NCBI GenBank assembly: GCA_030390025.1
Contig: JASTWF010000138.1
Coordinates: forward strand, 620,001-684,000
Reading direction: 5' to 3'
From: Squalus acanthias
Taxonomy: Eukaryota
DNA: 64,000 nucleotides
Of the stretch, positions 13,067 to 60,190 are shown piece by piece (position 1 is the stretch's first letter; the number at the start of each line of letters is the position of its first letter). The notes under the pieces were generated by a model that saw only the letters and a list, made by a program, of their open reading frames with translations, was not told the origin of the DNA and made no database searches. The position numbers and the translations under genes were made by a program.

Positions 13067-13544
13067 ATGAGGTCGGCGATTTCTCTCAGTCTGTTGCTGG
13101 CTTTCTTGTCCGGTGAGTAGTTTTTATTGTCCAAGTCTCTCACTGTTACTGTCTCAGTGTTAGTCTCTCTCTGGAATGTTACAGAGTCAGGAATCATTTC
13201 TCCAGGATTAATCCTCGGGGTTTTTGATTGTTTTTACAGGTGTCCAGTCGGATGTCGTGTTGACTCAGCCAGAGGCAGAGACCAGGAGTCCCGGAGGCTC
13301 CCTGAGACTGACCTGTAAAACCAACGGGTTCACTCTTGGCAGCTACTGGATGGGCTGGGTCCGACAGGTCCCCGGACAGGGGCTGGAGTGGCTGGTTCTG
13401 TACCTCAGTTCATCGTACAAGTTTTCCGCCCCAGGGATTGAGAGCCGATTTACTGCGTCCAAAGACACTTCAAACAACATCTTCGCTTTGGACATGAAGA
13501 ACCTGAGGACCGAAGACACCGCCATCTATTACTGTGCAGGATAC
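13067..13544 (+). CDS. IGHV: IgM heavy-chain V segment: leader exon 13067-13112, V exon 13240-13544; intact
   Basis: [55 protein letters not shown]; GT-AG phase-1 intron. Confidence 0.95.
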
Positions 13545-13583
13545 CACAGCGAGAGGAACCAGGGCTGGACCCGTACAAGAACA
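13545..13583 (+). other. VH 23-RSS
   Basis: cacagcg-23bp-acaagaaca. Confidence 0.9.
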
Positions 13584-13973: not shown

Positions 13974-14053
13974 AGTATTTGTGCGGGTTCCTGTCACTGT
14001 GGTACAACAGGGGGTCACGGTGCTGTACAGAGCGAGCTCCTCATACAAAAACC
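13974..14053 (+). other. IGHD: IgH D1 segment (14002-14015, gtacaacagggggt) with 5' 12-RSS and 3' 22-RSS
   Basis: agtatttgt-12-cactgtg | D | cacggtg-22-acaaaaacc. Confidence 0.9.
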
Positions 14054-14366
14054 CCGGACAGCGAGTTTGCTCACACCTGCGATCACTGCCACGGCAGGAG
14101 CGTCGAAGAAAATGAGGCTTAAATTAAAATAATGGGTAAAAGTAACATAGATTTATAAAAATGTGTAAAAGTGTTCTGCTTTATTAGTGTTGATTGTCGT
14201 GTTCAATCTGCACAGATGCTTCAGAAGTTTTCCAATTCCCTTTATAAAGATAATGACCAGCACAAACTGAAATATCTCACTGATTCAATCTTAGGGGAGT
14301 CGGAATCCGGGTTTTGAGAGCGCTGTGGAATTTCATCTCTGTATTTTACAATTAAAAGTCCGCCGG

Positions 14367-14450
14367 AGTATTTGGCACGGCGAGTCTCACTGTGGAACAC
14401 TGCCTACTTCGACTACTGGGGACAAGGCACCATGGTGACGGTGACTACAG
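14367..14450 (+). CDS. IGHJ: IgH J segment preceded by a 12-RSS (probable germline-joined D2-J); coding 14395-14450
   Basis: agtatttgg-12-cactgtg, then AYFDYWGQGTMVTVTT and a gtaag donor at 14451. Confidence 0.9.
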
Positions 14451-14489
14451 GTAAGAAACATTCACTCTTTCAGTAACTGTTGTATTTGC

Positions 14490-24043: not shown

Positions 24044-24343
24044 CGACACAGTCTCCTCCCACCCTCTACGCCCTGCTCTCCTCCTGTGAACAACCCAACA
24101 CCGGCGGCCCCGTCACGTACGGCTGTTTGGCGATGGACTACTTCCCGGAAATCACCAGCCTTTCCTGGAGTAAAGATAAAGAGCCGATCACCACTGGATT
24201 GAAGACCTATCCGTCAGTGTTCAACAAGCAGGGAACCTACACCCTGAGCAGCCAGTTAACTATCACCGAGTCAGAGGTGGGGAGCAGCACAATCTACTGC
24301 CAGGTTCGACAAAGTGGGTCGGACTTAAGCGTCAAAATGCCAG
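24044..24343 (+). CDS. IGHM: IgM constant exon Cmu1
   Basis: [40 protein letters not shown]; AG/GT phase 1. Confidence 0.95.
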
Positions 24344-25332: not shown

Positions 25333-25650
25333 TATCGAAATGTGATATCGTCCCTCCAACTGTGATCCTCACCCTGAGTTCCAGTGAAGAAATCACCAGC
25401 AGCAGGTCTGTAACCGCCGTGTGCTCAATCATCGATTTCCGTCCAAAGTCACTGACCGTGAATTGGCTGAAGAATGGACAACTCATGGATTCGGGCTTCG
25501 TCACCTCTCCCGTCTTTGAAGTGAACGGGAACTTCTCGGCGACCAGTCGGCTGACATTCACCGCCGGGGATTGGTTCGCCGACTCGGTCTATACCTGCCA
25601 GGTCACTCATGAACGAATCCCCCAAAGCAGAAACATCTCCAGATCTAAGG
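25333..25650 (+). CDS. IGHM: IgM constant exon Cmu2
   Basis: [39 protein letters not shown]; aag acceptor, gtaag donor. Confidence 0.93.
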
Positions 25651-27825: not shown

Positions 27826-28134
27826 ATGAGATCCAATGCAACGATCCAGAAATCACTCTTCCGCAACCGTCACTAGAACAAGTCTTACTGGAGGCGACGG
27901 TGACCTTAACCTGCGTCGTGTCTAATGTTCCTTATGGAGTCAACGTGTCCTGGACCCGAGAAAAGGAGACTTTGAAATCAGAGATTGCCGTCCAACCCGG
28001 AGAGGCTCCCAACAGCGTGATCAGCAACTTAAACATCTCGACACAAGCCTGGCTGAGTGGGGATGAGTTCTACTGCGTGGTAAGCCATCAGGATATGCCG
28101 ACTCCTATAAGAGATTCCATCCACAAGGAAAAAG
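27826..28134 (+). CDS. IGHM: IgM constant exon Cmu3
   Basis: [38 protein letters not shown]; canonical splice sites. Confidence 0.95.
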
Positions 28135-28651: not shown

Positions 28652-29043
28652 CTAAAGATCCGCGGGAACCGTCCGTGTCTGTCCTCCTGCCCCCGGCAGA
28701 AGAAGTCTCCGCTCAGAGGTTCGTCACCCTCACCTGCTTAGTCAGAGGTTTCTCCCCCCGAGAGATCTTCGTCAAGTGGACCGTCAATGACAAGCCGGTG
28801 AATTCCGGCAACTACAAGAACACCGAGGTGATGGCGGAGAACGGCAGCAGTTCCTTCTTCAAGTACAGCCTGTTATCCATTGCAGCGGAGGAGTGGGCCA
28901 GCGGCGCTTCTTACTCCTGTGTGGTGGGACATGAAGCGATCCCCTTGAAGATCATCAACAGAACGGTTAATAAATCCAGCGGTAAACCCAGTTTTGTCAA
29001 CATTTCCCTTGTTCTGATGGACACCGTCAATTCTTGTCAATGA
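28652..29043 (+). CDS. IGHM: IgM constant exon Cmu4 plus secretory tailpiece
   Basis: [56 protein letters not shown]; internal donor G|GTAAA after 28981; AATAAA at 29081-29086. Confidence 0.96.
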
Positions 29044-32020: not shown

Positions 32021-32657
32021 CGAAAAAACCTCAGGCTATAGACGAATGTAGAATTAAAATGCACTTTTTGAACGAACACAGTTTCCAACGATTGTTCTGA
32101 ATGAATAATTCCTGATACCATAAAATCTCACATTTCTCTATTCTGGTCCTACACATACACTGAATCAATGTTCTTGTTGGAATCTGATACAAGTTAATTA
32201 TGTTCGGAGCATTGCTATAACAAATAAATAAACAAGATTATAAATCACATCTGATCTCTTACCCAGCCCCCTTGACAGTCTCCAAATAAGTAGCTATCTA
32301 ATCCTATCGTTAAAATAACCGATATCAATCAATAAACCTCCCTCGATATTTCATCCTATTATTCCCGAATCATCGATTGTACGAAATTGATGCAAAATCA
32401 ATTAGCGTGTGACATTAAAGAAAAAACTGTCGTTTTTTCCAACACTGACTATAGGAGGATCATAAAGAAAGAGCGACTGTGGAGTTAGGAACAGAGATAG
32501 ATTGCTGAGCGAGATTAACTTAACACAAGATATACATTGAAAATTCAATTAGAGAACAAACTAATACCTTAAGGAAAAGAAGGGAATATATAATAATAAT
32601 ATGATATCTTGGATTAATAAACGATCTGAATATATTTCCGCCTCTACATCCCCGTAG

Positions 32658-32785
32658 ATTCCTCAGACCACATCTTGATTGAAGACTATGAGGAAGAGAG
32701 CGGCAACATCTGGACAACCGCTTCCACATTCATCATCCTGTTCTTCCTGAGCATGTCCTACAGCGCTGCCGTCACTCTAGTGAAG
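32658..32785 (+). CDS. IGHM: IgM transmembrane exon TM1
   Basis: DSSDHILIEDYEEESGNIWTTASTFIILFFLSMSYSAAVTLVK; tag acceptor, gtgag donor. Confidence 0.93.
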
Positions 32786-32925
32786 GTGAGAAGATTCAAT
32801 CCACTCACACTTCGATCTGACTGAAGCGGTTTGACAAATCTCTAAAAGTTTCATTGATAAAATCCCTGAGATAAATGCCCCAAACCACTAAATCTCTGCT
32901 TCATTCTTTTATCCCTCTTTTACAG

Positions 32926-39639: not shown

Positions 39640-40111
39640 ATGTGCTCCCCGTGTTCCATTCTCATAATAATGGTCGTGCTGTCCAGTGAGTTCATGTGTA
39701 AATGGTCATTGTGTGTTTCACGGATTATCCTTACTCCCAGACTTTTGACACATTCTGTGTTTTGTTACAGGAACGAGTGGCAAAAAATCAGTGTCCCAGG
39801 ATCCGTCTGAATTAATGGTTCAGCAAGGAAAACACATTAAATTGAACTGCAGTTACTCGGCAGCTGCTCCAACTCTGTTCTGGTACATCCAGTATCCCGG
39901 GGATGCTCCGAGATATTTACTGAGGATATATAGCTCGGGTACGGTAGACCAGTCTCCAGATTTCCCAGGCCGGTTTTCTGCTGTTTTGCACAGAGACAGC
40001 AAAACGGTTCCTTTAAATATCACCGCGGTTCTTGTCACCGACAACGCCGTCTATATCTGTGCCATAAGCCCCACACTGCTGCAGAGATATAGCGGATCCC
40101 GTACAAAAACC
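39640..40111 (+). CDS. TCR alpha/delta-type V segment V1 (leader 39640-39685, V exon 39771-40071, RSS 40072-40111); intact ORF
   Basis: SVSQDP..LNCSYS..LFWYIQYPG..RFSA..DNAVYICAISP; cacactg-24-acaaaaacc. Confidence 0.9.
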
Positions 40112-40369
40112 CACACTGAGAGTTCCAGTTAGTGATCACCAGAGGGCGCTCTCACACTGATAAACAGCAGCGATCATTCAGCCTCCAAAGTGAGAGTCAC
40201 AGGGACCTTCTTAACAGAGCGACATTTCACAACACTCAATAAGAACAGGTCAGGTCCACTTGGGGATCTTTTAGGTGATTTCAACTCGTATTTATAATAA
40301 ACATGAACTTCACAAATCATGTTTTTGGCGCCTTAACTCCCCTTTTGTCCTTTCTCTGTTGTGTACATT

Positions 40370-40872
40370 TCTGGGCACCACACGTTAGGATGATGTCAAG
40401 GCCCTGGAGAGGGAACAGAGGAGGTTTACCAGGATGATACCAGGGATGAGGGACTTCAGTTATGTGGAGAGATTGGAGAAGCCGGGATTGTTCTCCTAAG
40501 AGCAGAGAAGGTTAAGGGGAGACCTAATAGAAGTATTCAAAATTATGAGGGGTTTTGACAGAGCAAATAGGGAGAAACTATTTCCTCTGGCAAGTGGGTT
40601 GATAACCAGAGGGAATAGATTTAAAATAATTGGAAAAAGAACTAGAGGGGAAATGAGGAGACATTTCTTCACAAAGACGGTTGTTAAGATCTGAAAGGCA
40701 ATGCCTGAAAGGGTGGTGGAATCAGATTTCATGGGAACATTCAAAAGGCAATTAGACATGTACTTGAAGAGGACTAATTTGCAGGTTATGGAAAAACAGC
40801 TGGGATATGGGACTAAACAGGCACGACAGGCCGAATACCCTCTTCTGTGCTGTAAGATTCTATGAATCTATG
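40370..40872 (+). mobile_element. CR1 3' fragment
   Basis: QRRFTRMIPG..EQRRLRGDLIEVFK motifs. Confidence 0.85.
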
Positions 40873-41422
40873 ATGCCCATTCCGTGCCTGCTTGCAATAT
40901 TGTGCAGCCCTTTACACATCTCCCCTGTCAGTGTCCCGGACCCATTGATCGCGGCCTGTACACAGGGTTTATTTGATCAGAGTATGTTGCTGGGTCAGAG
41001 ACAGTTTATACACAATGAACAGATTTCACAAGGTAGTGATTGTGCTTTTTAAAACAGGCCCCAAGCACAGAGTTCCCCCAATGTCCATTGTCCTTCAGAA
41101 TGTCTCTTTAATGCTGGAATATTTTCCGTCACCATTAACAACCCCTCAGCTTCCCGGTTGCAATAACCAGGCAAGAGTTTCATTCCCACACCGGACTCTA
41201 AAAGCGGAACCATTCCCCTATAAGGCACTGACTGTGGCCCAGCTCGGGGTGTTTCCATTCACTGGCAGCCAGCTCACCACCTACCGGTCTCACAGCACCA
41301 CTGGTGGACACCAGGAAGTGAGGTCAGAGCATCCTGAGACACGACAGCAGATTATTGAGGGCGGGAATTAGAACGGGTGTCTTCAAATATCCAACCCCGC
41401 TTTTACAGAGCGGACAGCGACA

Positions 41423-41937
41423 ATGCGGCTACTCAGCATCTGGGCTGTGTGGGGGACATTTCTGACCGGTAATTATGGACCAAACACATTTAATCTTTTC
41501 TCTCATTTCTAAACATGGTTTGAATCTGAATTATAAACACACGCCAGTCTGATCTTTTCCTGTTTGACCATGTTTTTCAGATCTGAGTCTTGGAGATTCT
41601 GTCACTCAGCCGCTGTCCTCAGGAGTTAAGACAGAAGGAGAAGCGGTGACTGTAAACTGTACCTATGACACTAAATGGAGCACCTTTAATTATTTATATT
41701 GGTACCGGAACCACCCAGATAGACAGCCCGAGTTTATACTGTGGAAGGATCATGATGGAGTTGATGGTGTTGAGCATAAAGCAGATTTTGGTAAAACCCG
41801 GTTCTCTGCAGAAATCCAGACCTCGACTAAATTCACCAGTTTTACCATCTCGGGGCTGCAGCTGACCGACACTGCAGTTTATTACTGCCCCCTGAGACCA
41901 CACTGATGGAAACCAGTTAAACCCTGGTACAGAAACT
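41423..41937 (+). CDS. TCR alpha/delta V segment V2 (leader 41423-41468, V exon 41581-41898, 23-RSS)
   Basis: DSVTQP..VTVNCTY..YLYWYR..PEFIL..RFS..LQLTDTAVYYCPLR; cacactg-23-acagaaact. Confidence 0.9.
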
Positions 41938-42649
41938 CCCGCCGCTTTGTAGATCAGAGGCTCCGCCTGCTGAAGCCGGATATGAGGCTCACTTTGTGCT
42001 GTTTGCGGTACCGGCCATCCTGAGAACTGTTCCCAAAGTCTCTCATTTGTCGGTTGGGTTCAGTCTGTGCAGTTTCCGCGTTGTTTTCCCTGTTACTCAC
42101 TGGGAACTGTCTCTCCTGAATCACTGCCAACTTCATCTTCAGACTATTGACTGTTGCTCTTGTGCCTGTTTTCTGGACAGTTTTCTCTGAGTTTGCGCAC
42201 CAGCTGGGGAATGGGAATCTCGCGGGGTCACAGTTCAGCCGAGACTTCTTTGTTCTGAAGGGGTTTTGGCTCCTCAATGGTTTATTACATCGTTACTGAA
42301 TGTGTTCCCTCCGTTCAGTTCATTTCCTGCCGACTGGAGCGCCAGGTCTGAGTGCGATTCTGACACGGAATGAGAACTGGTTTATATTTGTTTCATTAAG
42401 TTTGAAAGTTGAGGTGCCCATTACATGAACAGGGATTGTAAGCACCGTCCCATCGAATACCTTATTGTCAAATTAGCAACACGATTATTTTTATGAATAA
42501 TAAACATGATGTTTCCTGTTCTGTACTGTTAGTTGGATAGCGATATATTTGTCAGTTTTTACACGGACACTCTCCTGTGAGAAGTACTGACAGTCCCCGT
42601 TTCTCCCCACACTGCCCGCTATCCAGTTGCACCTGTCACATTCCGGCAG

Positions 42650-43218
42650 TGTGTTTTTACGAGGCTCCCTCTGGTTCCTGTCACTGTGTCTCTCAGCCCG
42701 CAGTGATACACCGCGCTGTCAGACAGCCGTAGGCCGCGAATGGTGAAATTCCCCTCACTTTCTGAAATGTCGTGAAATGCGGAAATTCGAGCCCCCGTGC
42801 CTCTGCTTTGAAAACATCTCCCTAAGAAGGACTGCAGATCAGCAATGTTGGCCCATTGTCGCGGTCCTGACGGTACAGTTGTAAGGAATGTGAAGGAGCA
42901 GTGGTCGAATAGCTGTAATTACTGGTCACCGAGTCTCCTTCAAACTGCATCGCTGCAAGCGGCCCCTGTGAGACCGAGTCCGCACCACTAACACCGACAG
43001 AAATATAGAAATACACAACTTTAAACTTTTCTTATCATGTTATTATAACTGATAGCATCAAGGTGGCGGAATATACAGGAAATAGAGGGAAAATACAGTT
43101 AAAAGGAAGATTCTCTATGGCAGTGATACGTGCAAGAGGGAAGATTGTGTAACTTGTAAACTTTACCAGTTAAGAGAGCCGCAGCTGTGACGAATGAATA
43201 AAAAGTAACTCCTAACAT
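42650..43218 (-). pseudogene. TCR V pseudogene V3
   Basis: Leader 43167-43218; acceptor AG>CG; first Cys and Trp lost; stop and frameshift; ends LSDSAVYHCGLRD plus cacagtg (42682-42688). Confidence 0.85.
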
Positions 43219-43859
43219 GTTTGCAGAGAGTTGATAACAGATTTGAACAGAACGGGTTAAACCTGAAGTATTTTAGTCAAGACTTGGGAAGGTGTTGAAT
43301 GATATCTGGCGTCCCTGCCGATTGGTTCATTCCTGACCGAGTCAACAGGTGAGATCCAAGCAGCTCACAGTTCCTGTTTACACAAATTCTTCCAATCAAC
43401 TCACAGCTACTTTGTTCTCCAATTCATCCAATCAGCTCATAGCTCCTTTGTTCGTCACTTCATGACGTCTGTGGTCAAAATGCTCTTGCTCACTGAACAA
43501 GCGACTGGGAAGAAATAGAGTGAGTGCGTAATTAAGGGATTATACCGTATCAGAAATAATGAGCGGCTTTAATCAGCTATAATCTTGATCTTTGAGAGCC
43601 AATAGCTGGCAATCGTGTTTTTATACATGACCAAAAACCTTAAATCTCCTCAATGACCTCATTCTAAGGCTTAGGTAATACAATGCGCCAGCAGAGGGCG
43701 CCAAACTCAAGAATGATAATTAGAAAGTCATGTGATGCAAACGCCAAGGCCAACAGCAATCGAAGCCTGAATGAGGTCACAATGGGGACGCCCCCTGCAG
43801 TGTGTGGGTGGAACAATGAGCTGAACAGCCCGGGTTACCGCTCTCCTTCTCAATCTCTG

Positions 43860-44247
43860 CCTCATTGAAGCATACAAAATTATTACAGGGCTTGATAGGG
43901 TGGATGCTGGGAGAATGTTTCCCTTGGCTGGGGAGTCCAGAACCAGGGGCCACAGCCTCAGGATAAAGGTTAGGCCATTCAGGACTGAGATGAGAAGACA
44001 TTTCTTCACACAGAGGGTGGTGAATCTTTGGAATTCTCTACCCCAGAGGCCTGTGGAGGCTCAGTCATTGGGTATATTCAAAACAGAAGTCGATAGATTT
44101 CTGACTAGTAAGGGCATCAAAGAATATGGCGATAAGGCCGGTGAATGGAATTGAGGCAGAAGATCAGCCATGATCTCATTGAATGGCGGAGCAGGCTCGA
44201 AGGGCCGAATGGCCTACTCCAGCTGCTATTGCTTATGTTCTTATGTT
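43860..44247 (+). mobile_element. CR1 3' fragment
   Basis: DAGRMFPLAGESRTRGHSL motif plus 3' UTR. Confidence 0.88.
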
Positions 44248-44267
44248 CATTCAATTCCAAGTCACTG

Positions 44268-44838
44268 TGAGAGATTCAGTCAATTTCTAATAATACTGGC
44301 GGCTGTGTTGAACAGTAAGTATTGGATTATATATAAAACACACGTTAGCTGGTTGATGCAAAGAGCGTGTGCAGGGATTTAGTGCAATTACCGATCAGAA
44401 ATATTCACATGATGGACAGCTGTGTAGCTGGAGGGTTATCCACTCTCATACAGATAGACACAAGTTTCGATTTAATCTTCTGCTCTTCTGTTCCCCTATC
44501 TTCACAGGCGGGCTGTGTGCAGATCCAGTAACTCAGTCTCCGGTGACAATTGCCTTGTCAACAGGGGGTTCGGTGCCGTTAGATTGTGAATATAAAAGCC
44601 CGGATATTGACTACATGCAATGATATCGGCAGAAATCGGCACAGCCACCAAGCTGGATAATTAGCAAAGTGGTAGCACTGAAGGGAGACGAAATCTCAGG
44701 ACAATATCTGGCAGCTGCTAACACGTCTAGAACGTACGGTTACCTCAATATAAGCAGCCTGAGTGTGGAGGACGGGGCGGTCTATTAATGTGCAGTGAGG
44801 CACAGCGTCAGAAAAAGCAAAGGCCCCGGACAAAAACC
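44268..44838 (+). pseudogene. TCR V pseudogene V4
   Basis: Leader remnant FSQFLIILAAVLN|gtaagt with no ATG; V exon 44508-44800 with Trp>TGA and Tyr>TAA (AVY*CAVR); cacagcg-22-acaaaaacc. Confidence 0.85.
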
Positions 44839-44884
44839 TCAGCGAGAATTTACAGCTCCATTAAGTGTTCTTTTGTGCTGCTTT

Positions 44885-45322
44885 CTGTGGGGTTAATTTG
44901 ATCCCAAACCCACGGAGACTAAAGACAGCCAGGTTTCTATTTCAACGAGTTGTATTTGTGTCTGTGTCTTTGCCCAAATCAGCGGAGAACCGGTCTGGGA
45001 AATCTGGAGACTTGTCTCCCTGCCCCGAGCTGTATCTCCTCATTAAATAACTCGGATCTTCCCCGGGGATACTGGTTGTACCAGAAGAGGTAGGGAAATC
45101 TATCGGCTGTGGAGTAACTAGAGTTCAGTATTAAGATCTGTCCTTCCTGAACCGTTAATTCAGGTGGATCCTGGGAAAATGAGGCTTCGCCATTGTAACA
45201 AAATACTGAATCTGTCAGAAGTCTGGGAGTAAATATAACCCATGAAATACATACGATATTTTAAACATAGACTCACCGGGCAGCACGACCATTATTATCA
45301 GTAAGAAACATGGGGAGCGCAT
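44885..45322 (-). pseudogene. TCR V pseudogene V5 (V1 family)
   Basis: Leader 45277-45322 similar to V1; acceptor deleted; Cys>Ser; frameshift; DKSPDFPDRFSA retained; no YYC or RSS. Confidence 0.8.
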
Positions 45323-45487
45323 GGTGTCTGGTTTAGATGGGAGTCTCCGGCTCTGATACCAGAACAACATTAACTATTGGTCACTGGCCCCATCTCACAG
45401 ACTGACGCTGCTAAAGGGCGAACATTGGCTTTAATCCTCGTCCAGTTCTGAGGAGAACAATTTCACTCCGTTCTCTGATCCCCGCTC

Positions 45488-45790
45488 TGACGTCATGAAT
45501 TGGCGAACAAAGTAGCTGTGAGCTGATTGGTTGAATTGGAAAACAAAGGAGCTGCAAACTGATTGGATAAATTGGAGAACAAAGGACCGAGAGCTGATTG
45601 AATGTGATCTGCTGACTCTGTCGGGAACGGACCAAACGGCAGAGAGACCGGATATTACTCAACATCTTCCCAATTCTTGACAAGACAATTTCAGCTTCAA
45701 ACCGTTCTGTTCAAATCCACCACCAACTCTCTGCAAACATGTTGGGTGTTACTTTTTATTTATTCGTCGCAGCTGCAGCTCTCTTAACTG
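45488..45790 (+). promoter_or_regulatory. V promoter module (CRE plus repeated inverted CCAAT) and orphan V3-family leader exon 45739-45790
   Basis: tgacgtca at 45488; repeated attgg; MLGVTFYLFVAAAALLT with donor mutated to ataagt. Confidence 0.6.
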
Positions 45791-46216
45791 ATAAGTTCAC
45801 AAGTTACACAGCATTGTGTTTCACATCTGTATCATACATTATATTTAATCGGTCAGTTCCCTGAACACATGAATATCAATAGGTTGATCCGAAGTGAAGA
45901 AAACCATCAGGATCCACCTTGACTCAACACTGAACACTGTTTGGGGAAACTCGACAAACTCCCTCAGTGAATGAAAGCGGATGAGTTGAGGTGAGATTAC
46001 AGGCGAATGGCAGACAGACAAGCCCGTCGGCGTCAATGACGGACATTGACAGACACACGAGTCTTAAACCCACAGACAGTTTGGAGTTTTCCCTTCACAT
46101 CACAAGAGGTGAAGGTGAGGAACTGATCCCGTTAGAAGGTGCTGAAGGTTAATTAAAGGGTGTTTATTCAGTCGATCCCAGCGCCATCCCGTGAGCAGCC
46201 CCTGAGCTGTGGGGAT

Positions 46217-46429
46217 ATATATTTATGTTCAACTGCCCTGATTTGCTTCACAGATAAGTGTTGGGGGTGACGGGCTGATTCTGGGCGGTAAACACAGTGA
46301 AGTGACATTGTTTAATTTAATATCGCTCTGGGCTCTTGCAGGACATGGGCGAGGAGACTCCGGTTCACAGACACCGGCTGCAACCACAGTAAATGAAGGA
46401 GACGATGTTCAGTTGTATTGTAATTATAC
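46217..46429 (+). pseudogene. TCR V segment V6 (V11 family), truncated by an assembly gap, probably a pseudogene
   Basis: GDSGSQTPAATTVNEGDDVQLYCNY then Ns; leader ATG>ATA and donor GT>AT relative to V11. Confidence 0.7.
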
Positions 46430-49036
46430 NNNNNNNNNNNNNNNNNNNNNNNNNNNNNNNNNNNNNNNNNNNNNNNNNNNNNNNNNNNNNNNNNNNNNNN
46501 NNNNNNNNNNNNNNNNNNNNNNNNNNNNNNNNNNNNNNNNNNNNNNNNNNNNNNNNNNNNNNNNNNNNNNNNNNNNNNNNNNNNNNNNNNNNNNNNNNNN
46601 NNNNNNNNNNNNNNNNNNNNNNNNNNNNNNNNNNNNNNNNNNNNNNNNNNNNNNNNNNNNNNNNNNNNNGTGAAAGTCTTTCATAGAGGTAACCAGGCTG
46701 CTGACTGAGAGACAGATGGACAGCGGCCTGTCTGGGCCTCGGTCGCTTGTTCTCCCTGAGCAGGGGACCAGTTTGTATTCGGGTTCCCACAGTGCGGAGA
46801 CACAGAGAAAGGAATCACTGGACACCGGGAAATGCAGGAGGAAAAACATACTGACTGTCTGGAGCCTGTGCACAAAGGTCACGAGCATCTGGCACCAGTA
46901 GAACTGAAAGGAAATGAAAGTCAGTTGTTGTGAATGTGGGTTGTGAGTTGTTGTTTTTTTTCAGATCACGAAGGGTTAAATCTGCGAGCGCAAGCTGTCA
47001 ATTTCCGAGCTCGAATTCATCTGATTAATGTTTCTGTCGCTGCAAGTGTTGATGTAAAAGGCTCTACATTCGCCATCAGCATCACCGCAACACATCTCGC
47101 TATAAATGAGCACTGGAAACTGCCCATAGATACACTGACTGTCTGTTTTCACCCAGGATCTCAAAAGTGTAAAAGTTCCCATTATATCCGCCAGAGGGCG
47201 CCGTGCTCATATGTTTCTCGCTGCTTCCTCCGCACTCAGTCCCATGTTATTCATGATATGTCGAAAACCATCAACATTTCAAACCTGTTTATATTTGTGT
47301 TGTGTTCCTGGTGTTCAGTAAAATACCTCCCCTCCCGCTTGTTCTGTCTTGCTTTCACCGTCACAATCTCTCTCCACCACGCTTATGAAAAATTTCCTTA
47401 TACTGCACATCTTAAAGCAACTGCAAAGTGGCATTTTTGGTAGTTTTGTAAAGCTGCAGTTTGAAAAAAAATCTCTTATATATTAAAATATGTAATGGAC
47501 GACACACTCAGAGGGACAATTTTGTAACCCGAGTGAGGAGTTTCTCCCGTGTCACTAACCACTGTTGGACAGCCTGGAGAGATGTATGTTGGACATCTTG
47601 GGGAGTTACGGGATAACAGTCGAACTTCTTTGTATCTTGGATTAACAAGCTTCCAGGCTTTCAATATCTAAACAGGATGACTTTGAAGAGTCGTAAAAAG
47701 AATGCACTGCTTTGTTTCTGAGATGTAAAGTGCTGGTGTAAGGGAATAAGTGATAGTAATGACGTCACCCATGAGTGGTTTAGTTTTAGGGTAATAAACA
47801 TGGTTAGATGGATCCATTAGCTACAGAGAGCAGTTGGTACAGTAGTTACTTCAAAGATGCTAGCAAATGTTCTGTCAGGAAGTCTTGTTTAAGGGACGTA
47901 GTTATGAATTAAACAAACAACAAACTGTTTAGATGAATATTCCGTTTTCAAAGGGTCTGGGAATAGATACGTCATACAGGCTTATCTATGACATTCTCCT
48001 TTGATGTAGTCAAAATATGGTGTATAAATGATCATGGTTTTCAACAGTATCTCAGCGTGTACTGGAAAGATACTGAAACCGAAACAGTCACTCTCTGTAT
48101 ACAGTTAAAGACCGATCACCTTTACTGTGCATCAATAAGGTCTGTTCCGTGTACTCCACTACGGAGTCTCGTGCTTACTCGAAACGTGTTGTTGTGAACC
48201 AGAGGAGAAAGGATGTTGACTGCTAACAGCCACCATTTCCCTCCCCGTGTGATTAATTTCCGCGCCTCCTGTTAGATTCAGGCAGACTTTAATCTAACGG
48301 GTTCAGCAGATATTTAGGGAAAGGGGCTCATATTCCCCTCCCAGCTATTGCCAACACAGTCGGATGATGGCGGTTAGATATTATCTCGAAATGACAATAT
48401 ATCGGTTTGAATGTAGATGAAGATGTTCAGTTTATTTCACTCTGTCAGTAATCAGACTGAGGTGGTTGACGGGGGTCGGGTTTGATTAACCTTCTGATGG
48501 GGACACACAAGGGGAAGATTTCCTCTGGTCTCTCTGTGGAATTCTCCTCTGAAATTGTTTTAACGAAATCGCAATCTCATTCTTTTAGAATGCGTTCATT
48601 ATTTCGTTAGAAATAGCGACCAGAGGAAATCTCAACCACAGTGTGGACACCTCGGTGTAAACACGAATGTTACAGGAGAATGAAGTTAATGCTCTCGATG
48701 AGTCGTCACACACCAGCATAAAATAAACACTCAGTGTGACCGATTCGGCCCCGGTGAATATAATCCCACAATTAAGCAATGCTGAAGTTTTCCTCAGACC
48801 AAGGAATGCCGTCACTGAGTGACGGCCCCATAGGCCGATACTTTATGCTGTGACTGTCAGTATCTCTGATCAAACCCGCTATCAACTGGAAATTATAGAG
48901 ACAACCCTTGCGGTCACACTGCCTGCGGCAGCCCCGCCCACAGCTTCCGTTCGCTGCTCTCGCTCTGACGCGCCTTGCCCGCCCTGTGTTTTTGGAGAGA
49001 TTGCTGCAGCTGTTACGGGACTGTAAACAGGAGGGA

Positions 49037-49505
49037 GGTTTTTGTACAGTGACTGCCGCGTTTCCTCTCAGTGTGCGGCTCTATCGCACAGTAATACACC
49101 GCGGTATCCGCGCTCTCCGTGCTCTCAATGACCAATTGGCCGCGTTTGTCCGCAGTGGAAAGATCCAATTCAAATCGGTCCCTTCTCTCTTTGCCAGCTG
49201 ATGCCCGCATTATTACCCACTCCAGTCCCTGACTGGTTTCTGTTTGTACCAGTGCATGGCGTAAATGCTGGACATGTCATAGCTGCAGTTTATCTGCACC
49301 GAATCCCCGCTCCGGACTGTTATCGCAGCGGGAGACTGCAGCACTCGGTCCGAGAGACATCGACCTGTAAAAACATTCAGATAATAAAACACTGGAGCAA
49401 CGTGAATAAAACAAACACTGCGGGTTATTGAGCACAGCTCCTGTACCTACATGGTAGCAGCACCAGAATAACGAGTGATACATTCACTTGTACCGAGTAA
49501 TACAT
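49037..49505 (-). pseudogene. TCR-locus V segment V7 with a single frameshift in FR2
   Basis: Leader 49451-49505; V exon 49076-49364 DRVLQSP..INCSY..YAMHWYKQKP/QGLEWV..DTAVYYCAIEP; cacactg-23-acaaaaacc. Confidence 0.85.
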
Positions 49506-50006
49506 CCTTGTAATTAAAATGTCAAGAGGAAAGCGGCAGACAGCTCGCATCAGAAGACTCCGAACCGAGTGACGACATTGAACAGGCGGCTGATTAAAGT
49601 CAGCGCCGCCCAGTTAAAGTCTCAGTCACGTGGGTTTGCTGCTCTTGGATTGGTTGGAAATGGACATTGTTCACCCGCGGTTCACATCCGGACATGTCAG
49701 TGGTCTAATGACCAGCAAGTTCCTCTCCTCCTTGTGGAGGGAAGTGAGGTGAACCCATCACTTTGTGATAGTGACTCTCTGAAGGGCCATTCCTGGCGCT
49801 GGGAGTTTGGAACCAAGTCAAACTCTATATAACCCTTTCCTTACAGAATGTATGGAGGCTCTGGAACTGTGCCCCACAAAGGAGTCAACACATCCAGGAC
49901 AGTCTGATAAAACCTTTCCTTACAGAATGGATGGAGGTTCTGGAACTGTACCCCACAGCAGTAACAGCTGATATCCAGCCTTTCTCTTACAGAGCGGACA
50001 GCAGCA

Positions 50007-50052
50007 ATGCAGCTACTCATCATCTGGATTGTGTGTGAGGCATTTCTAACAG
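50007..50052 (+). pseudogene. Orphan V2-family leader exon
   Basis: acagagcggacagc..ATG CAG CTA CTC ATC ATC TGG, similar to the V2/V12 leaders; no donor and no adjacent V exon. Confidence 0.6.
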
Positions 50053-50184
50053 CCGAGCTGGGCTGCTGTCTGTGTCCTTATAGGCGAATGGTCCCACATT
50101 TAGAGTCCAGGCTGGGAATGAAACCCATGTCTAGGTCTTGTAACCGGGAAGCGCAGGATTATTAATGGGTTTGGTTTACAAAAG

Positions 50185-50600
50185 AATAGAAAAATTAGGA
50201 GCAGGAGCAGGCCATACGGCCCCTCGAGCCTGCTCCACCATTCAATAAGATCATGGCTGATCTTCGACCTCAACTCCACTTTCCCGCCCGATCCCCATAA
50301 CCCGTGATTCCCCTAGAGTCCAAAAATCTATCTATCTCAACCTTGAATATACTCAAAGACTCAGCATTCACAGCCCTCTGGGGCAGAGAATTCCAAAGAT
50401 TCACAACCCTCTGAGTGAAGAAATTCCTCCTCATCTCAGTCTTAAATGGCCGACCTCTTATCCTGAGACTATGCCCCCTAGTTCTAGACACTCCAGCCGA
50501 GGGAAACAACCTCTCAGCATCTACCCTGTCAATCCCCTTCACAATCTTATATGTTTCAATCAGATCACCTCTCGTTCTTCTAAACTTCAGAGAGTATAGA
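50185..50600 (-). mobile_element. CR1 3' fragment
   Basis: KGIDRVDAERLFP..RTRGHSL motif. Confidence 0.88.
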
Positions 50601-51972
50601 TTTATTCCAGGGTCAATTCATTCTCTATAATCCCGTTAGTTTTACCGTCAGGACACTGTTAACCGTGACTCCAGTGACCTTTCCCCTCCCGGGTCAGTTC
50701 ACTGGTGAAATAACAATGTTGTCGGAATGATTTATAGATCCCTGATATTAGAATGATGACATCTGCTGTGACTGAACAAACAACTGAACAGATTAAAGAA
50801 TAAACTCTCCCTGTAATTTAAACAGAGTTTCAAGAACTGTCCCCTTCTGTGGTTTGTATTAAAATGCTGTTTAAATTCTATCTGTTAAGTTCTGACCTTC
50901 TTTCTGTCTGTAATGATTTATTTAAAGATCCATAATCTTCAGATTTTTGATTACCAATGAGAGAGAATGGAGGGAACAGCCTAGCGGTGCTTTTCAGGAA
51001 TTTACCGCTCATCTGTATAAAGTGCCCGGGAGCAGAGCGCGGGGAGCGGGTTCTAAGCCCCCAGGGTGAGGTGCATGCTCTCGTTACCAAGAGCTCAACA
51101 TCAGCAGGGCATGAAAAACTGTCCTGACAACTATCTCGCATATTAACAAATGATGAGGAGCAGAAAAAGAAACACAATACAGGCAGTTTCGATTTGTTTT
51201 TCGCCCCTTTAACATCGATTTCCAGCATCAGTACAGTTAATAGCTTCAGAAATCAGATCTCAGGGTGTGTCTTTCATTCACATTTTACTATTGCTTTCCC
51301 CATCTTCCACATCCTTCCACTCTCTTGTCCTGCCCACTGGTTAGTATCAAAATTCAATCCTTCGATATGATGGATGTCTTTTTGTGATGATTATTGCCCG
51401 ATGTACCGACCCAGCCCATTGTGGATTTCAAACATTAATCTTCAGTTCATTCCAAAATATACACAACTGTTGGAGAAACAGCGTTTAACTCACTGCCCGG
51501 GGTCTGAGCCAAACAAAGGATATTGTGAGCTGACGCCCTCTGGTGGATATTCTGAGAAATGTTCAGATGTCGGTGGACAGGGTGTGAGGAATCCTGTGTG
51601 TATTCACTGAACTGTCTGCAATTCCTGGTTATGGGAAGCATCGTTCAACGACAGATTGGAACAAGAAAGTTCGTACGATTATAGGTAAAGCGTGGAGACA
51701 GGGGATGATAAAGGACAGGCAGGCACGGAAAGTGCATAGAAAGACAAAAGGTGTGTTCAGGAACTACAGATGGATTTGTGAATTTCATTTTTATCATTTT
51801 GAAATCACCAACTAATGTAATTCTGCCAGTGGACTTCACCTTTTCATGTGGAGTGTTGTGTTTTGTCGACATTTAGAAGGTCCCTGTGACTCTCACTGTG
51901 GAGGCTGAATTATCGCGTGTTTATCGGTGTGAGAGCGCCCTCTGGTGAGCACTAACTGCAACTCTCAGTGTG

Positions 51973-52488
51973 GGTTTTTGTACGGGCTCCGCTATATCTC
52001 TGCAGCAGTGTGGGGCTCATGGCACAGAAATACACGGCGGTGTCCGAGATCAGGGCATTACTGATCGTTAGCTCGGTAATCTTGCTGCTTTTATTAAACG
52101 TAGAAGAGAATCGGTCAGTGAATTCAGGGTTCCTGTTTACTATTCCTGCATAGAGATACAACACGTACTGTGGAGGCTGCCCGGGGTGCTGACTGTACCA
52201 GTACACATAAGGGGTAGTAGCGGTTGTTTTCAAGGTGCAGTTTAGTGTGACGTTACTTTCCTCTTCAACCGTTATTTCAGAAACCGGCTGTTCCACTGCG
52301 TCTTGATGGCTCCATTCTAATATAAAATAATAGTAATAGTCATCACCATCACCATCATCATTAGGATCATTTAACCAATTATCATAGCTGGGTTACAGCC
52401 GTCAGGGGGAGAATGGATTTTAACTGGGGAGGAAATACTTACTGAGAAGTGATATAATGATGAGGAGCGGTGCGAGGCGGTTGTACAT
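51973..52488 (-). CDS. TCR alpha/delta V segment V8 (leader 52443-52488, V exon 52013-52316); intact
   Basis: DAVEQP..VTLNCT..YVYWYSQHPGQPPQYVL..DTAVYFCAMSP; cacactg-24-acaaaaacc. Confidence 0.9.
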
Positions 52489-53265
52489 GACGCTCCCTGA
52501 GTCTGTAACTCTGCAGTCCTGGAAATCCTCTGTCGGAGCAGAAATACAGATCCCCGCCGCACTGCACTGCTGATCCAACCAATGCCAAATAAGTAAGCTC
52601 TCCGATAACAGAAGGCGGGTTAAAGCGAGAGCAGCAAACGGAAGCTGTGGGCGGGGCTGCCGCGGGCAGTGTTACTGCAAGCTTTGTCTCCATCATTTCC
52701 AGTTGGTAACGGCCAGAAACATGTGACCACGGCGCCCTCTGGCGGTCACTCTGAGAACTTTACACTGTTAGGATAATAGATTGAGTAAAGTGTGAGTTTA
52801 TCTATGGCGAACTTTCCAGCGTCCGGGTTTTGGGAGAGGCGGTTCAGACAATTTAACTGTGAAATAGGTGGAAGGATAATATGAGTGAGCTTAAAGGGAA
52901 GGGAAATTTTACTTTATTTCTGAATCTCTTTCTTTATGGCTTTCTCTTAACTTTAAGATTTATGTTTCTCACTTATTATTTCTCACTTTCTTTCATTTCT
53001 TTTTCCCTCCTTCCTAATTTGCTGTCCACTACACGTATTATTACATTGATTTTTCTCTTTCTCTCATTCTTTCTTTAGTGCCTTCGCTTTGTTTTCCTCT
53101 GTCTGTGTTTCAAAATCTGTTCATTTCAGAATTTCTTTAACTCTCTCTCTTCTATATTTCCTATTATTTTCTGTGTTCATTCTCTCTGTCCTCCGATTAT
53201 TATAACCGGGCCCCTCCCAATCCCGTTGCTCCAAACACAGCAGAGCGGCGCTCCCCCTCGGTGCA

Positions 53266-53638
53266 GGTTTCTGTGCGGACTCTCCGCCTGTTTGTTACAC
53301 TGTGGGCTCACGGCGCAGAGATAGGTGGCGCTGTCTGTCACTCGCGCGTCTCTCACAGTCAGGGCACTGAGTTTATTGCCTCCCCCGATTGAAGCAGTGA
53401 TCCTCCCGTGTTGATCGGTCCCGCTTGTGGCCATCACCAGATGCTGGAGGGTCTGATCCGGGTTCTGTCTGTACCAGTGCAGGACGTTAAACCCAGCGGT
53501 AGCGGAGCAGTTGATGGACACGATTCCCTCTTCACTAACAACCACCCGCCGAGGGAGCTGCTCCACCTCATCTTCACCGCTCACATCCGTGCAGATCAGA
53601 GTGTAAATCAGCAGGGAAACTCTGTAAATCCGGAGCAT
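53266..53638 (-). CDS. TCR alpha/delta V segment V9 with intronless leader (coding 53305-53638, 23-RSS 53266-53304)
   Basis: Single ORF MLRIYRVSLLIYTLICTDVSG-EDEVEQLP..INCS..LHWYRQNP..DSATYLCAVS; cacagtg-23-acagaaacc. Confidence 0.9.
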
Positions 53639-53814
53639 TATCCGATCAGATGAAGAGGAGGCTGAAAGAATTGTTCACAGAGGTCGGGTTAGAACTAGAC
53701 ACTGATATTATATTCAGGGTAATTAACAAAGAGACAAACTCTCGCTTCTTGTCCAACGCAGAGGTTTCTTCCTGTCGAACTAACGAAACAAGCTATATCT
53801 CTGGGTTTACCCAA

Positions 53815-54275
53815 CCCCGGGCCGTCCACACTCAGTGTTTCTCACTGACACCAGCTCACACTGTCTCTGAGCTCACACCGGGCCGCTCACACTCAGTGTT
53901 TCTCACGTGACACCAGCTCACACTGTCTCTGAGCTCACACCGGGCCGCCCACACTCAGTGTTTCTCACTGACACCAGCTCACACTGTCTCTGAGCTCACA
54001 CCGGGCCGCCCACACTCAGTGTTCTCACTGACACCAGCTCACACTGTCTCTGAGCTCACACCGGGCCGCTCACACTCAGTGTTTCTCACTGACACCAGCT
54101 CACACTGTCTCTGAGCTCACACCGGGCCGCTCACACTCAGTGTTTCTCACTGACACCAGCTCACACTGTCTCTGAGCTCACACCGGGGCCGCTCACACTC
54201 AGTGTTTCTCACTGACACCAGCTCACACTGTCTCTGAGCTCACACCGGGCGGCTCACACTCAGTGTGTCTCACTG
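53815..54275. repeat. ~61-bp minisatellite upstream of V9
   Basis: (ccgggccgctcacactcagtgtttctcactgacaccagctcacactgtctctgagctcaca)n, about 7.5 units. Confidence 0.95.
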
Positions 54276-55564
54276 TTTCACCCTGTCTTCTGGTGGCGAG
54301 TACTTGCGAGGTGCAATTATTGACGCCAATTCCCGATAATTTGCAGTACACAAGATAGTTATAAGAGAGAACGGCTACTCGCTCCTTCAAGGGATGACTC
54401 CGTCATTCAGAGAGATCCCAGCTCTCGACTTCCATTGTAGCATCCAACGATTCCAGTGTATTCTCCTCCCCCACTCTAACTGAAAGTTTATTCCACACAT
54501 TGATCACTCTCTGTGTGTGAAGCGGGATTTCCTGATACCAGTCCTGGAATTTTAACCCGTGTTCTTTCCCAGAAGGATGGAGTGGGAATTTTTTATGCTA
54601 ATATTTACAACATAACAATAGTAATAATAACATTGATAAATCATGATGAAAACTGATAATAAGCCATATAAACACTGATATTAATTTCAAAGTCAAGCCT
54701 CTATTTCCGAATCTGCTTCTTTAATCCCTTCAATAAAGTTACTGAACAATGTTCTCAGGCTGCAACTCGCCTCGATACTGAAACCAGCACAGTGAACACA
54801 TCCTCGCACTGCCCTCTGGTGGCGACTGCCTGTAACTACAAGGTACAAGACCTGACCTGTTCCAGTTCACAAGATCATTCTGAATGAGGGAAGTCATTCG
54901 GCCCGTATTGTCCCATCCATCCAGAGAGATACTATCTCCCGGCCCCACTGTGGCCTCAAACTTTTCCTTAAAAGTTTCCAGGATATGTTCCTCCACCACT
55001 GTATTCGGAAACTTATTCCATACATTCACCAGTTTCCATGTGTGAAGAAGATATTGTCCTATAATTACATTTTATACTTTGAACCCGTGATTCCCTCTTC
55101 TACTTCAAACAGTTCAATTTAAAGTAATATTGCTGAATATGTTTTTAATACATCAACTGTGTGATACTTCTCTAGATGTCATTGCAGTCAGGCACTGAGT
55201 ACGGTGCTGATTAAAACTCTCGCACATCCGCGAGCAGCAGGTCACAAGCGCTGGGTTTGTCACCTTGGAATTGATTATTCCAAAGAAAGAAGGCAGGGAT
55301 CATTGTGAGAGAAAGTGAGGACAGCGCGACAATTCCTCACAGGTGGATCCTACGTGTGACATCACTTCCCGCGGCAGCCCCGCTCACAGCTTCCGTTTGC
55401 TGCTCTCGCTCTGACCCGCCTTGCCTGCCCGGTGTTATTGGAGAGATTGCTGCCTCTGTTCCCTGTTTGACATTGGTTGGATCAGCAGTGCAGTGGGGCG
55501 GGGATCTGTATTTCTGCTCCGACAGAGGATTTCCCGGACTGCAGAGTTACAGACTCGGAGCATC

Positions 55565-56151
55565 ATGCGGAACCGGCTCGCACCGCTCCTCATCATTATA
55601 TCACTTCTCAGTAAGTAATTCCTCCCCAGTAAACATCCATTATCCCCCTGACTGCTGTAACCCAGGTGTTATTATTGGTGAAATGGTGATAATGATGGTG
55701 AATTAGACACATTTCATCTCTACTCTCATTTCCATTATGTTTTAAATCTGAATTTTAAACACCCGCCGGTCTGATCTTTTCCTGTTTGAACATGTTTTTC
55801 AGATCTGAGCCTTGGAGATTCTGTCACTCAGCCGCTGTCCTCAGGAGTTAAGGCAGAAGGAGAAGCGGTGACTTTAAACTGTACCTATGATACTACACAG
55901 GGCGGCAGCTATAATTTGTACTGGTACCGGCAACACCCAGACACACAGCCCGAGTTTATTCTGATGAAATACGCGAGCGGTTCTGAAGATAAAGCACATT
56001 TTGCCCAAACCCGTTTTTCAGCACAACTCGACAGCTCCACTAAATTCACCAGTTTAACCATCTCGGGGCTGCAGCTGACCGACACTGCAGTTTATTACTG
56101 TGCCCTGGGACTCACAGTGATGGAAACCAGTTAAACCCTCGTACAGAAACT
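55565..56151 (+). CDS. TCR alpha/delta V segment V10 (leader 55565-55610, V exon 55803-56112, 23-RSS); intact, chimeric leader
   Basis: MRNRLAPLLIIISLL/NLSLGDSVTQP..NCTY..LYWYRQHP..DTAVYYCALG; cacagtg-23-acagaaact. Confidence 0.9.
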
Positions 56152-56779
56152 CCCTCCGCTTTGTAGATCAGAGGCTCCGCCTGCTGAAGCCGGATATAAC
56201 GACGGGCAGATGTGAAGAGCGATACAAAATAATTATTCAGCAAATCTGCCATTTCCTTATATTCTATGACATTATCACCCGAGTGTGTTTTTAAGCGGCC
56301 CACATTACCCTGAGCCCCGCTTTCTCTTCTTACTTTGAAAACGTTTCCATATAATCGCCATCAGAGGGCAGTTCATTGTTCGTTTGAGTGTCGGGGCGAG
56401 TTACAGACTAAGAACATTGTTCATTTTATTTAACTAAAGAATTAGAGAAACACATTTTTAAATGCAGGCATTAAGTTCAAAAGCAAGTCTGTGTTCCAAA
56501 TGGTTAACTATTAAGTTATTGTGAATGTGGTTATTGTTAACGTGAATACGTTGTAAATATTTGTAATGAGCAGCTCGCCCCAGAATCAGTAAAACTATCT
56601 GTTGTCTGCACCCTCCCATTCTGCTCAAACCTGTCAGTCACTCCCCATTTCATTCATATAAAAGGTCGCGTTTGTCTAATTTACCGCATCGTTGTGTTCA
56701 AATCCTCAGGATCTACTGGCCGTCTCTACCTCCCTTTATATCGGCTGTGGGTAGTTCTAATGGTCAGTGAGCAGCTCTT

Positions 56780-57800
56780 TTAATGGGAGCCTCCGGCACT
56801 GCTGCCAGAACAATATTAACAAATTCCTTTCACTGGCCCCACCTCACAGACTGAAACTGTTAAAGGGCCAACATTGGGTTTAATCCCCGTCCAGTTCTCT
56901 GTTGTGAGGAGAACAAATGAGCTGTGAGCTGATTGGATAAATTGGAGAACAAAGGACTAGTGAGCTGATTGGATATCTCCTGCTGACTCTGTCAGGAATG
57001 AACCAATCGGCAGAGAGGCCGGATATTAGTCAACATCTTCCCAGCTCTTGACTAAAACAAATTCAGGTTCAACCCGTCATCCGACATCAACTCCCTGCAA
57101 ACATGTTGGCTGTTACATTTTATTTATTCGTCACAGCTGCAGCTCTCCTAATTGGTAAGTTCAAAAGTTACACAACACTGTATTTCACATCTGCATCATA
57201 CATTATATTTAATCGATCAGTTCCCGGAACACAAGATTATCAATATGTTGATCCAAAGTGAAGAAAACCATCCGGATCCACATTGACTCAACACTGAACA
57301 CTGTTTGGGGAAAATTGACAAAACCCTCCAGTGAAGGAAAGCGAAAGAGTTGAGGTGAGATTACAGGCGAATGGCAGACAGACCCGCTCCGCCCCGCCGG
57401 GGTCAATGACGGACTTTGACAGATAGACGATTCTTAAACCACAGACAGTTTGGAGTTTTCCCTTCACATCACAAGAGGTGAAGGTGAGGAACTGATCCCG
57501 TTGGAAGGTGCTGAATGTTCATTAAAGAAAGTTTTATTCAGTCGATCTCAGCATCATCCCGTGAGCAGCCCCTGAGCTGTGGGGAAATGTATTTCTGTTT
57601 AACTGCCCTGATTTACTTCTCAGGTAAGTGTTGGGGGTGACGGGCTGATTCTGGGGGATAGACACAGTGAAGTGACATTGTTTAATTTAATATCGCTCTG
57701 GGCTCTTGCAGGACATTGTCGAGGAGACTCCGTTTCACAGACACCGGCTGCAACCACAGTCAGTGAAGAAGACGATGTTCAGTTGCACTGTAATTATACA
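56780..57800 (+). repeat. Segmental duplicate of ~45340-46429
   Basis: Collinear high similarity across the promoter, both leaders and the V 5' end. Confidence 0.85.
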
Positions 57801-58056
57801 GCTACAAGCACCAGCGATCTTACCTATTCTGGTACCGTCAGTATCCCAGCGGATCCATAGAGTATCTGCTGCAGAGAACAAGATACAGCAAGAACGAAGG
57901 GAGATTTCCAGGGGTCCGTTTTTCAGCGAAGCTCAATGATTCGAGCCGAACCGTCCCGCTGAATGTGTCTGAAACACAACTGACAGACTCCGCGGTGTAT
58001 TACTGCGCACTGAGCCCCACAGAGACACGGAGCTGGGCTGGACCTGTACAAAAACT
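57587..58056 (+). pseudogene. TCR V segment V11 with a single frameshift in CDR1
   Basis: Leader 57587-57623; V exon 57712-58017 DSVSQTP..LHCNY../YLFWYRQYP..DSAVYYCALS; cacagag-23-acaaaaact. Confidence 0.85.
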
Positions 58057-58539
58057 GTCAGAGCGTCGCTCAACATATCAGCGCGTCAGAGGAACATTGT
58101 GATCAGGGGCGAGTCTCAGCTGGTCCCTGTATTTGTGATTAGACATTGTGCTGTTAATTCTAATATATAGGTATCTTTATTCCTGCAATTTGTCTCTTTT
58201 TAAGTATTTATCCAATTCCCCTTTGAATGTTATTATTGAATCTGCTTCCACCGCCCTTTCAAGGCAGTGAATTCCAGATCACAACAACTCACTGAGTAAA
58301 ACAACAAATCTCCTCATCGCCTCTCTCCAATTCTTTTGCCAAGTATCTTCAATGTGTTTGTCATAGACTGGGTTTGTATTCCCTTGAATATAGAAGATTA
58401 CGGGGTGATATAATTGTGATGTTGAAAAAGATGAAAGGAATTGATAGGGTGGATAGAGGGATAAACAGGCGATAAGATGTAGTACTGTTATCACTCAGAC
58501 ATGGCCTCCTGTAATATAACCAGTGGCAGGATTTAATTT

Positions 58540-59523: not shown

Positions 59524-59581
<58 letters not shown>

Positions 59582-60190
59582 ACGCTTTGTACGTGCTATT
59601 TTCAGTGTTCTTGTTAACCAGATGATAGTTGTGCACTTGGTATCATTAGGAACCTGTGGCAGCCCATCAGGCGTTGCTGTGAGATCACGGTCCCAGACTC
59701 TGTCGAGCACTATCAGTGGGTCATGCGAAAGCTAAATAGAAAAGTCTATGTAATATAAAGAGAGACCGGGCCCAGTGTACTATAAACAGCGGCATGGTAT
59801 GGTGCAGTATTAAAAAAGACAGGGTCTAGTGTAATATAAACAGAGACAGGGTCTATTGCAGTAGTAACTGAGACAGGGTCTAGTGTAATATAAACAGAGA
59901 CAGGGCCGAGTGTAATATAAACAGAGACAGGGTCTATTGCAGTAGTAACTGAGACAGGGTCTAGTGTAATATAAACAGAGACAGGGCCGAGTGTAATATT
60001 AACACAGACATTGTCCAGCACTTTCTAACTGTGACATGGCCTGGTGTAATATAAACAGGGGCATGGTCTAGTGCAGTAATAAATAATATAGGGCCTAATG
60101 TTATATAAGCAGAGACATTTTCTATTGTAGTAATAAATGAGACGGGGCCTAGTGTAATATGAACAGAGACAGGGTCTCGTGCAGTAATAA
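58540..60190. repeat. 27-bp minisatellite (same family as 6720-7530), interrupted by a unique spacer with (CA)n(TA)n at ~59500-59580
   Basis: gtctagtgtaatataaacagagacagg units at 58540-59410 and 59745-60190. Confidence 0.9.

Follow-up and report, generated by a model that had tools for sequence, protein, structure and literature searches.

Layout of the IgM cluster and its recombination signals

The stretch of Squalus acanthias DNA analyzed here, 64 kb in full and called the window below, carries one shark IgM heavy-chain cluster, intact and on the + strand (Table 1). A VH with a 23-RSS, a D segment and a JH lie within ~2 kb of each other at spacings of ~400 bp (457 nt from V to D1 and 379 nt from D1 to DJ), which is the arrangement that marks a shark IgM cluster. 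Four mu exons, a secretory tail and a transmembrane exon are likewise present, open and spliceable, as an IgM cluster should have them. V, J and CH1-CH4 all have AG/GT splice sites, J ends at 14450 with a GT donor directly after it, and the reading frame stays open from DJ through CH4 to the stop. The gene is probably put to normal use in B cells.

Table 1. Annotated features of the 64-kb window, in order of position.
Feature	Position	Strand	Remarks
IgM heavy-chain leader exon	13067..13112	+	ATG start, GT donor, open in frame with V
VH exon, open	13240..13544	+	stop-free; 63-74% identity to shark VH by tblastn
VH 23-spacer RSS	13545..13583	+	1 mismatch in heptamer, 2 in nonamer
D1 5' 12-spacer RSS	13974..14001	-	
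D1, the sole free D, 14 nt	14002..14015	+	
D1 3' 22-spacer RSS	14016..14053	+	nonamer perfect
D1-D2 spacer of an ordinary cluster	14054..14366	.	matched by X11 record 1
12-spacer RSS ahead of the fused DJ, read as the 5' signal of D2	14367..14394	-	X8 record 30
D2 remnant, 8 nt	14395..14402	+	compared with free D2 of relatives
Extra base C, either an N base or an altered first base of J	14403..14403	+	
JH minus its first base	14404..14450	+	compared with J of relatives; frame open into CH1
CH1 of IgM	24044..24343	+	73% to Heterodontus IgM, 62% to nurse-shark IgM; AG/GT, open
CH2	25333..25650	+	
CH3	27826..28134	+	
CH4 with secretory tail and stop	28652..29043	+	
Transmembrane exon, ends approximate	32657..32791	+	73% identity to the membrane form of Heterodontus
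Array of TCR alpha/delta-type V genes, both orientations	39749..61706	.	10 with RSS of 22-24 spacer

The recombination signals of the cluster run V(23)-12 D1 22-12 J. An unjoined cluster would have D1 and D2 both free, and its J would carry a signal; here there is one free D, and the J has no signal of its own. The sequence-only reading that preceded this analysis had counted a single free D, and D1 is indeed the only one, as neither a second D-flanking RSS pair nor a second J was found within the 64-kb window. It had also described a 12-RSS that runs straight into J behind a nonamer close to that of D1. The heptamer of this RSS (14367-14394) is perfect; the nonamer agrees with that of D1 at 8 of 9 positions and departs from consensus at 3. 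Scoring of the junction found no heptamer directly ahead of J, and the earlier statement that no nonamer stands at the 22/23 distance was borne out, with 7 of 9 letters mismatched at a spacer of 22 and 8 of 9 at 23; among spacers of 10-25, the best was 12. Nine nucleotides, GAACACTGC (14395-14403), sit between the second 12-RSS and J, and the fused DJ reads NTAYFDYWGQGTMVTVTT.

Signals of this quality would be rare by chance. A perfect heptamer, 12 bases and a nonamer with at most 3 mismatches occur together twice in the window, both times inside the IgM cluster, while 60 dinucleotide (Markov) simulations of the window gave a mean of 0.18 per window, or ~1.4e-6 per position and strand.

The introns and flanks of the gene hold several repeats. 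An old tandem duplication of ~640 bp (14490-15040 and 15136-15680) starts just 3' of J in the J-CH1 intron; its ungapped pieces are 76-87% alike, and no second J was found ahead of the second copy. A tandem array of ~40-bp units begins directly behind CH1 (24400-25200), and a G/C-skewed minisatellite (~60 bp) lies between the secretory and transmembrane exons (29470-30970). Long reading frames resembling reverse-transcriptase remnants, of LINE or Penelope type as judged by eye from the translation, are located at 1393-2622, 18321-19919 and 36500-39100, one of them within the J-CH1 intron.

The junction against unjoined clusters of relatives

To read the junction we used contigs of public sequencing runs from related organisms, the best of 20 listed runs, none of them recorded as RNA, sharing 38% of the window's words. 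Seven of the 20 runs were used for alignment (X1, X3, X6, X7, X8, X9 and X11); six of these are DNA-type or unlabelled, and X6 is RNA-like. The most direct comparison comes from one contig of run X8 (record 30; 867 nt, depth 31.9). It follows the window over 14252-14402 with 5 differing letters in 151, all outside the RSS, then carries 397 other letters after 14402, and resumes over 14404-14480 with 3 differing letters in 77. In place of those 397 letters the window has a single base. Set against this contig, the coding ends of D2 and J are fused in the window, and both facing signals and the spacer between them are gone.

Other runs give the same picture from either side of the junction. X11 record 1 spans 13960-14399 without a gap and with 21 differing letters in 440, and the X11 loose end at 14399 continues into the rest of D2 and the D2 3' heptamer. 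In X3, D2 extends past 14402 with GGTGG and a heptamer, and in X1 the D2 3' heptamer can be seen, followed by 12 bases and the first letters of a nonamer. Altogether, the same 12-RSS leads into a free D2 in at least four of the six DNA-type or unlabelled runs (X1, X3, X8 and X11), and the D2 3' heptamer is visible in at least three of those (X1, X3 and X11). At least five of the six (X1, X3, X7, X9 and X11) have loose ends in which J lies behind a heptamer of its own, the nonamer falling beyond the 30 letters shown. The window's form of J, found in X1, X7 and X11, is preceded there by a CACTGTG heptamer and one A. An alternative in which a variant J itself starts at 14399 was rejected, as among the matches listed no contig of the six DNA-type runs has depth at 14402-14403 except the joined contig of X7 described below.

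Because the relatives' contigs run into a free D2, we take it that the stretch from D1 to J is the D1-D2 spacer and that the 12-RSS before J is the 5' signal of D2 itself. The flanks match the unjoined clusters of related organisms closely, agreeing at 419 of 440 letters in one contig and at 146 of 151 in another. The sequence-only reading had expected the spacer between D1 and J to match a D1-D2 spacer, and it does (X11 record 1, above), the comparison being with relatives and not with clusters of the same species. It had further expected the bases after the heptamer to map to D2; of the 8 letters at 14395-14402, 7 agree with the start of the free D2 in X8, the exception being a substitution at 14396. 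The central proposal of that reading, a fusion of D2 to J, is thus well supported by the unjoined clusters in related organisms. D1 itself departs at 14006 and 14011 (2 of its 14 positions) from nearly all aligned contigs of the seven runs, a higher rate than the 1-5% by which the flanks differ.

By the same comparison, the junction lacks 5 nt of D2, 0-1 nt of J and, between these, the spacer with its two inner signals; 0-1 nt was added. No P bases are present in the D2-J joint. V(D)J joining typically leaves its breaks at the two coding ends with little trimming. As both breaks here fall at coding ends and the trimming is slight, RAG is the probable cutter, and the junction appears to have the shape of a RAG coding joint. 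The direction of change would then be a loss of 397 bases rather than a gain. The 0-1 added base also fits a join made in the germline, because little N addition is reported for germline joins in nurse shark, in the passages of PMC2193156 that treat them.

Our best explanation is a D2-J coding joint in an intact IgM cluster, likely made by RAG and likely inherited, to which we assign a probability of about 0.84. RAG, likely active in a germ cell, would have joined D2 to J with loss of the 397 bases between them, and what now stands behind the 12-spacer signal of D2 is 8 of its bases, then the extra base, then J. A B cell would finish such a gene by two joins instead of three, V to D1 and D1 to DJ, in either order. 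Its CDR3 would have two N regions, one fewer than usual, and a fixed 3' end with N-T-A before YFDYW unless trimmed.

Alternative origins and joined forms in relatives

The alternative that survives best is somatic: a partly rearranged allele of a T or B lymphocyte, with D2 joined to J in that cell, could have become the assembly sequence. In nurse shark, V-D-DJ is one of three one-step somatic products and has been seen in single thymocytes, as reported in the relevant passages of PMC2435157. The layout of that intermediate is identical to the window's, with one intersegment of ~400 bp removed. It is, however, restricted to lymphocytes, variable from cell to cell and infrequent in the account given there (PMC2435157), whereas the window's form is an assembled sequence. 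Each somatic junction is unique and should not win the consensus, and it is unlikely that a junction private to one cell would become assembled sequence. The V of the cluster is also free of a heavy mutation load relative to relatives (X3 record 9, 3 of 268 letters differing; X3 record 10, 3 of 140). We therefore regard a somatic origin as improbable.

A germline deletion without RAG would have to proceed by slippage between a short repeat found in D2 and at the end of the J signal, with the J heptamer decaying afterwards. Such a repeat can be pointed to: AACACTG at 14396-14402 recurs exactly in the J signal in X1, X7, X3, X9 and X11, where 2 of the letters close the spacer and 5 open the heptamer, and this origin of the letters would account for the mismatch at 14396. 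Slippage nevertheless takes three events, a large deletion, a further 2-nt loss and a substitution, against one join and one substitution for the coding joint, and its left break would still land 1 nt from the D2 heptamer. A mismatch to D2 is in any case unsurprising, as D segments vary among clusters (D1 at 2 of 14 positions, and several forms of D2 in the runs). A contig of X6 that shares the letters of 14399-14403 has D2-type letters upstream of them, which favours the reading of these bases as D2. We consider a slippage deletion quite unlikely.

An assembly chimera or a collapse of near-identical IgM clusters has in its favour that these clusters exist in multiple copies, which are 95-99% alike in the relatives aligned, and that the window contains two N gaps. 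The nearest gap, however, ends at 11229, 3.1 kb upstream, and a collapse of paralogues preserves the order of parts; it would not take out just the two inner signals while the joint stays in frame with one base added. An artefact of this kind is highly unlikely. A native one-D type of cluster, which never had a D2 and whose spacer order V23, 12D22, 12J formally equals that of TCR beta/delta, has a negligible chance of being correct. X8 record 30 goes most of the way to refuting it: in relatives the signal, its spacer and the 8 nt that follow belong to D2, and J has its own heptamer.

Joined forms are also found in the runs of relatives. In the DNA-type run X7, a contig of depth 69.5 contains a D2-J join within 90 bases, and could be V-D-DJ or VD-DJ. 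It has the window's junction length of 9 nt and a common letter with it at 14356, but differs from it at 5 of 9 junction positions, as against 1 of 81 in the flanks. With 5 of 9 junction letters differing, we rejected the same event as the source of both joins, an independent join being simpler. V-to-J joins occur in the DNA-type runs X7 (depth 96.6) and X9 (depths 25.6 and 7.3), and X9 also has a D1-to-J join, from 14013 to 14409 at depth 7.3, with V still apart or unseen. A loose end in X3 shows a V-D-D join that ends in a heptamer. With one relative's run holding a D2-J join of different junction letters, such joining seems to recur.

The X6 run, RNA-like by guess, has a depth of ~300,000 on J and of ~30-160 on the spacer. 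The X6 contig mentioned above (depth 158) combines the junction letters of 14399-14403 and the D2-type letters upstream of them with a V end and a CDR3, and is in frame by hand count; on this match, the window's junction form is present in a rearranged gene. The match may reflect a germline join shared by another organism, or it may be a somatic match by chance. We could not accept that this contig uses the window's form of D1: it matches that form over 6 letters and the common D1 over 5, too small a difference to decide.

Among the matches listed, the window's own junction was seen in 0 of the 6 DNA-type runs, and no bridging D2-J contig was seen in X1, which bears the same organism label as X7. 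Nor was one seen in X11, a low-depth run with 7 contigs aligned whose organism label is that of X6, an absence that carries no weight. Metagenome contigs, searched with a 24-letter piece of J, gave 0 matches.

Predicted consequences for joining and comparison with known germline joins

What the fusion would change for the gene is limited. The sequence-only reading had predicted shorter CDR3s, and the blunt length from Cys to Trp does drop, but only from 50 nt (unjoined, with a D2 of 13 nt) to 45 nt (V-D1-DJ) unless D1 is skipped, in which case V-DJ would measure 31 nt and V-D2-J 36 nt. The 5 nt that the fusion costs are probably about what trimming removes anyway. The same reading had proposed direct joining of V to J. 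Such a join would obey the 12/23 rule, yet it is the same as a V-to-D2 join in any unjoined cluster, and the searched literature passages contain no statement on D1 skipping. Acceptance of any V with a 23-RSS, also suggested there, would be nothing new, as D1 and D2 of unjoined clusters already offer 12-RSSs. In TCR beta/delta the spacers are ordered V23, 12D22/23, 12J. The likeness to that grammar, also put forward earlier, is formally correct in that the order V23, 12D22, 12J is present, but the 12-RSS belongs to D2 and 8 nt of D2 remain behind it. The real changes would be that two joins suffice where an unjoined cluster takes three (a single one when D1 is skipped) and that the 3' end of CDR3 is fixed. 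Peculiar to this gene would be that a single cut could complete it.

Downstream of the constant region lies an array of V genes whose TCR label depends on one member, the V at 61389-61679, which shares 75% identity with a protein of whale shark that bears the name TCR alpha chain-like. A PDB search with one downstream V returned a mixture of Ig and TCR hits. The minus-strand V genes at 53304 and 61386 are open, have near-consensus 23-RSSs and lie 39-47 kb from the DJ. By geometry, an inversion would place the V of 53304 or 61386 before DJ-C-mu in one step, whereas plus-strand V genes would finish on the excised circle instead.

Other members of the array deserve mention in their own right. The V genes at 40072 (+) and 52012 (-) have near-identical RSSs (24-nt spacer, perfect nonamer) and similar 3' flanks, and encode very different proteins, both open. 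One V family occurs in both orientations, at 41899 and 56113 (+) and at 61386 (-), and its member at 41899 has Pro for Ala right after the second Cys. Four V genes have stops or frame breaks and still recognizable RSSs, at 42688 (-), 44801 (+), 49075 (-) and 58018 (+).

These neighbours allow a more far-reaching scenario, in which the DJ join is old, selected, inherited by several shark species and expressed, and serves as a one-step landing site for TCR V genes, giving antibodies of TCR V and IgM. We think this very unlikely. One of its components, a single old DJ join common to several species, is hinted at by the junction letters in X6 and the junction length in X7 and is possible, though doubtful. 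Known chimeras run the opposite way, with Ig V on TCR delta (PMC5931798, PMC5192425, in the passages concerned). The literature search found no TCR-V/IgM chimeras, and the pertinent part of PMC5192425 mentions only Ig V on TCR delta. The elasmobranch antigen receptor complex, in which IgH is linked to TCR alpha/delta, resembles the window in having an IgM cluster beside TCR alpha/delta-type V exons; what the relevant passages of PMC12227049 describe is the joining of IgM/IgW V to TCR delta D, and not a pre-joined DJ or a TCR V joined to IgM. Within the nurse-shark IgM clusters themselves, inter-cluster joining was found in 1 of 58 thymic VDD-J clones, according to the section of PMC2435157 that deals with it.

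Germline joins of other kinds offer the closest parallels. The passages on such joins in several reviews list the germline forms VD-J, VD-DJ and VDJ (PMC5192425, PMC4279169, PMC3308330, PMC8355894). Those partly joined elasmobranch IgM clusters share with the window the cluster layout, a coding joint in genomic DNA and intact remaining signals, and VD-DJ contains a D2-J join. They differ in that here V and D1 are free (V-D-DJ, a form unlisted in those passages), two joins remain to be made and the gene is intact. The germline-joined NS4 light chains of nurse shark are similar in their cleanly lost signals, trimmed ends and little N addition, and are read as products of RAG activity in germ cells (PMC2193156, in its account of NS4). 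They are, however, complete VJ exons whose germline status was shown in animals (PMC2193156), whereas the window's join is partial and probably germline. Bamboo-shark IgNAR clusters include pre-joined D segments, as noted in part of PMC8692893. Our literature search found no germline V-D-DJ, the form appearing in sharks only as a somatic product and otherwise in a human study; this search covered subscription journals and the early horn-shark and skate papers poorly, and a prior report is quite possible.

Partial germline joins have long been known in sharks, and an inherited form with only D2 and J joined is likely uncommon and would be an added variant. The fused DJ creates no new recombination rule. 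It would put a fixed junction tag on every transcript of the cluster, by which D1 skipping and the joining of TCR V genes could be counted. If the join is indeed germline, the D2-J-only form joins the list of inherited partial joins, and it would agree with a view in which the order of joining among shark IgH pieces is as free under RAG in germ cells as in lymphocytes.
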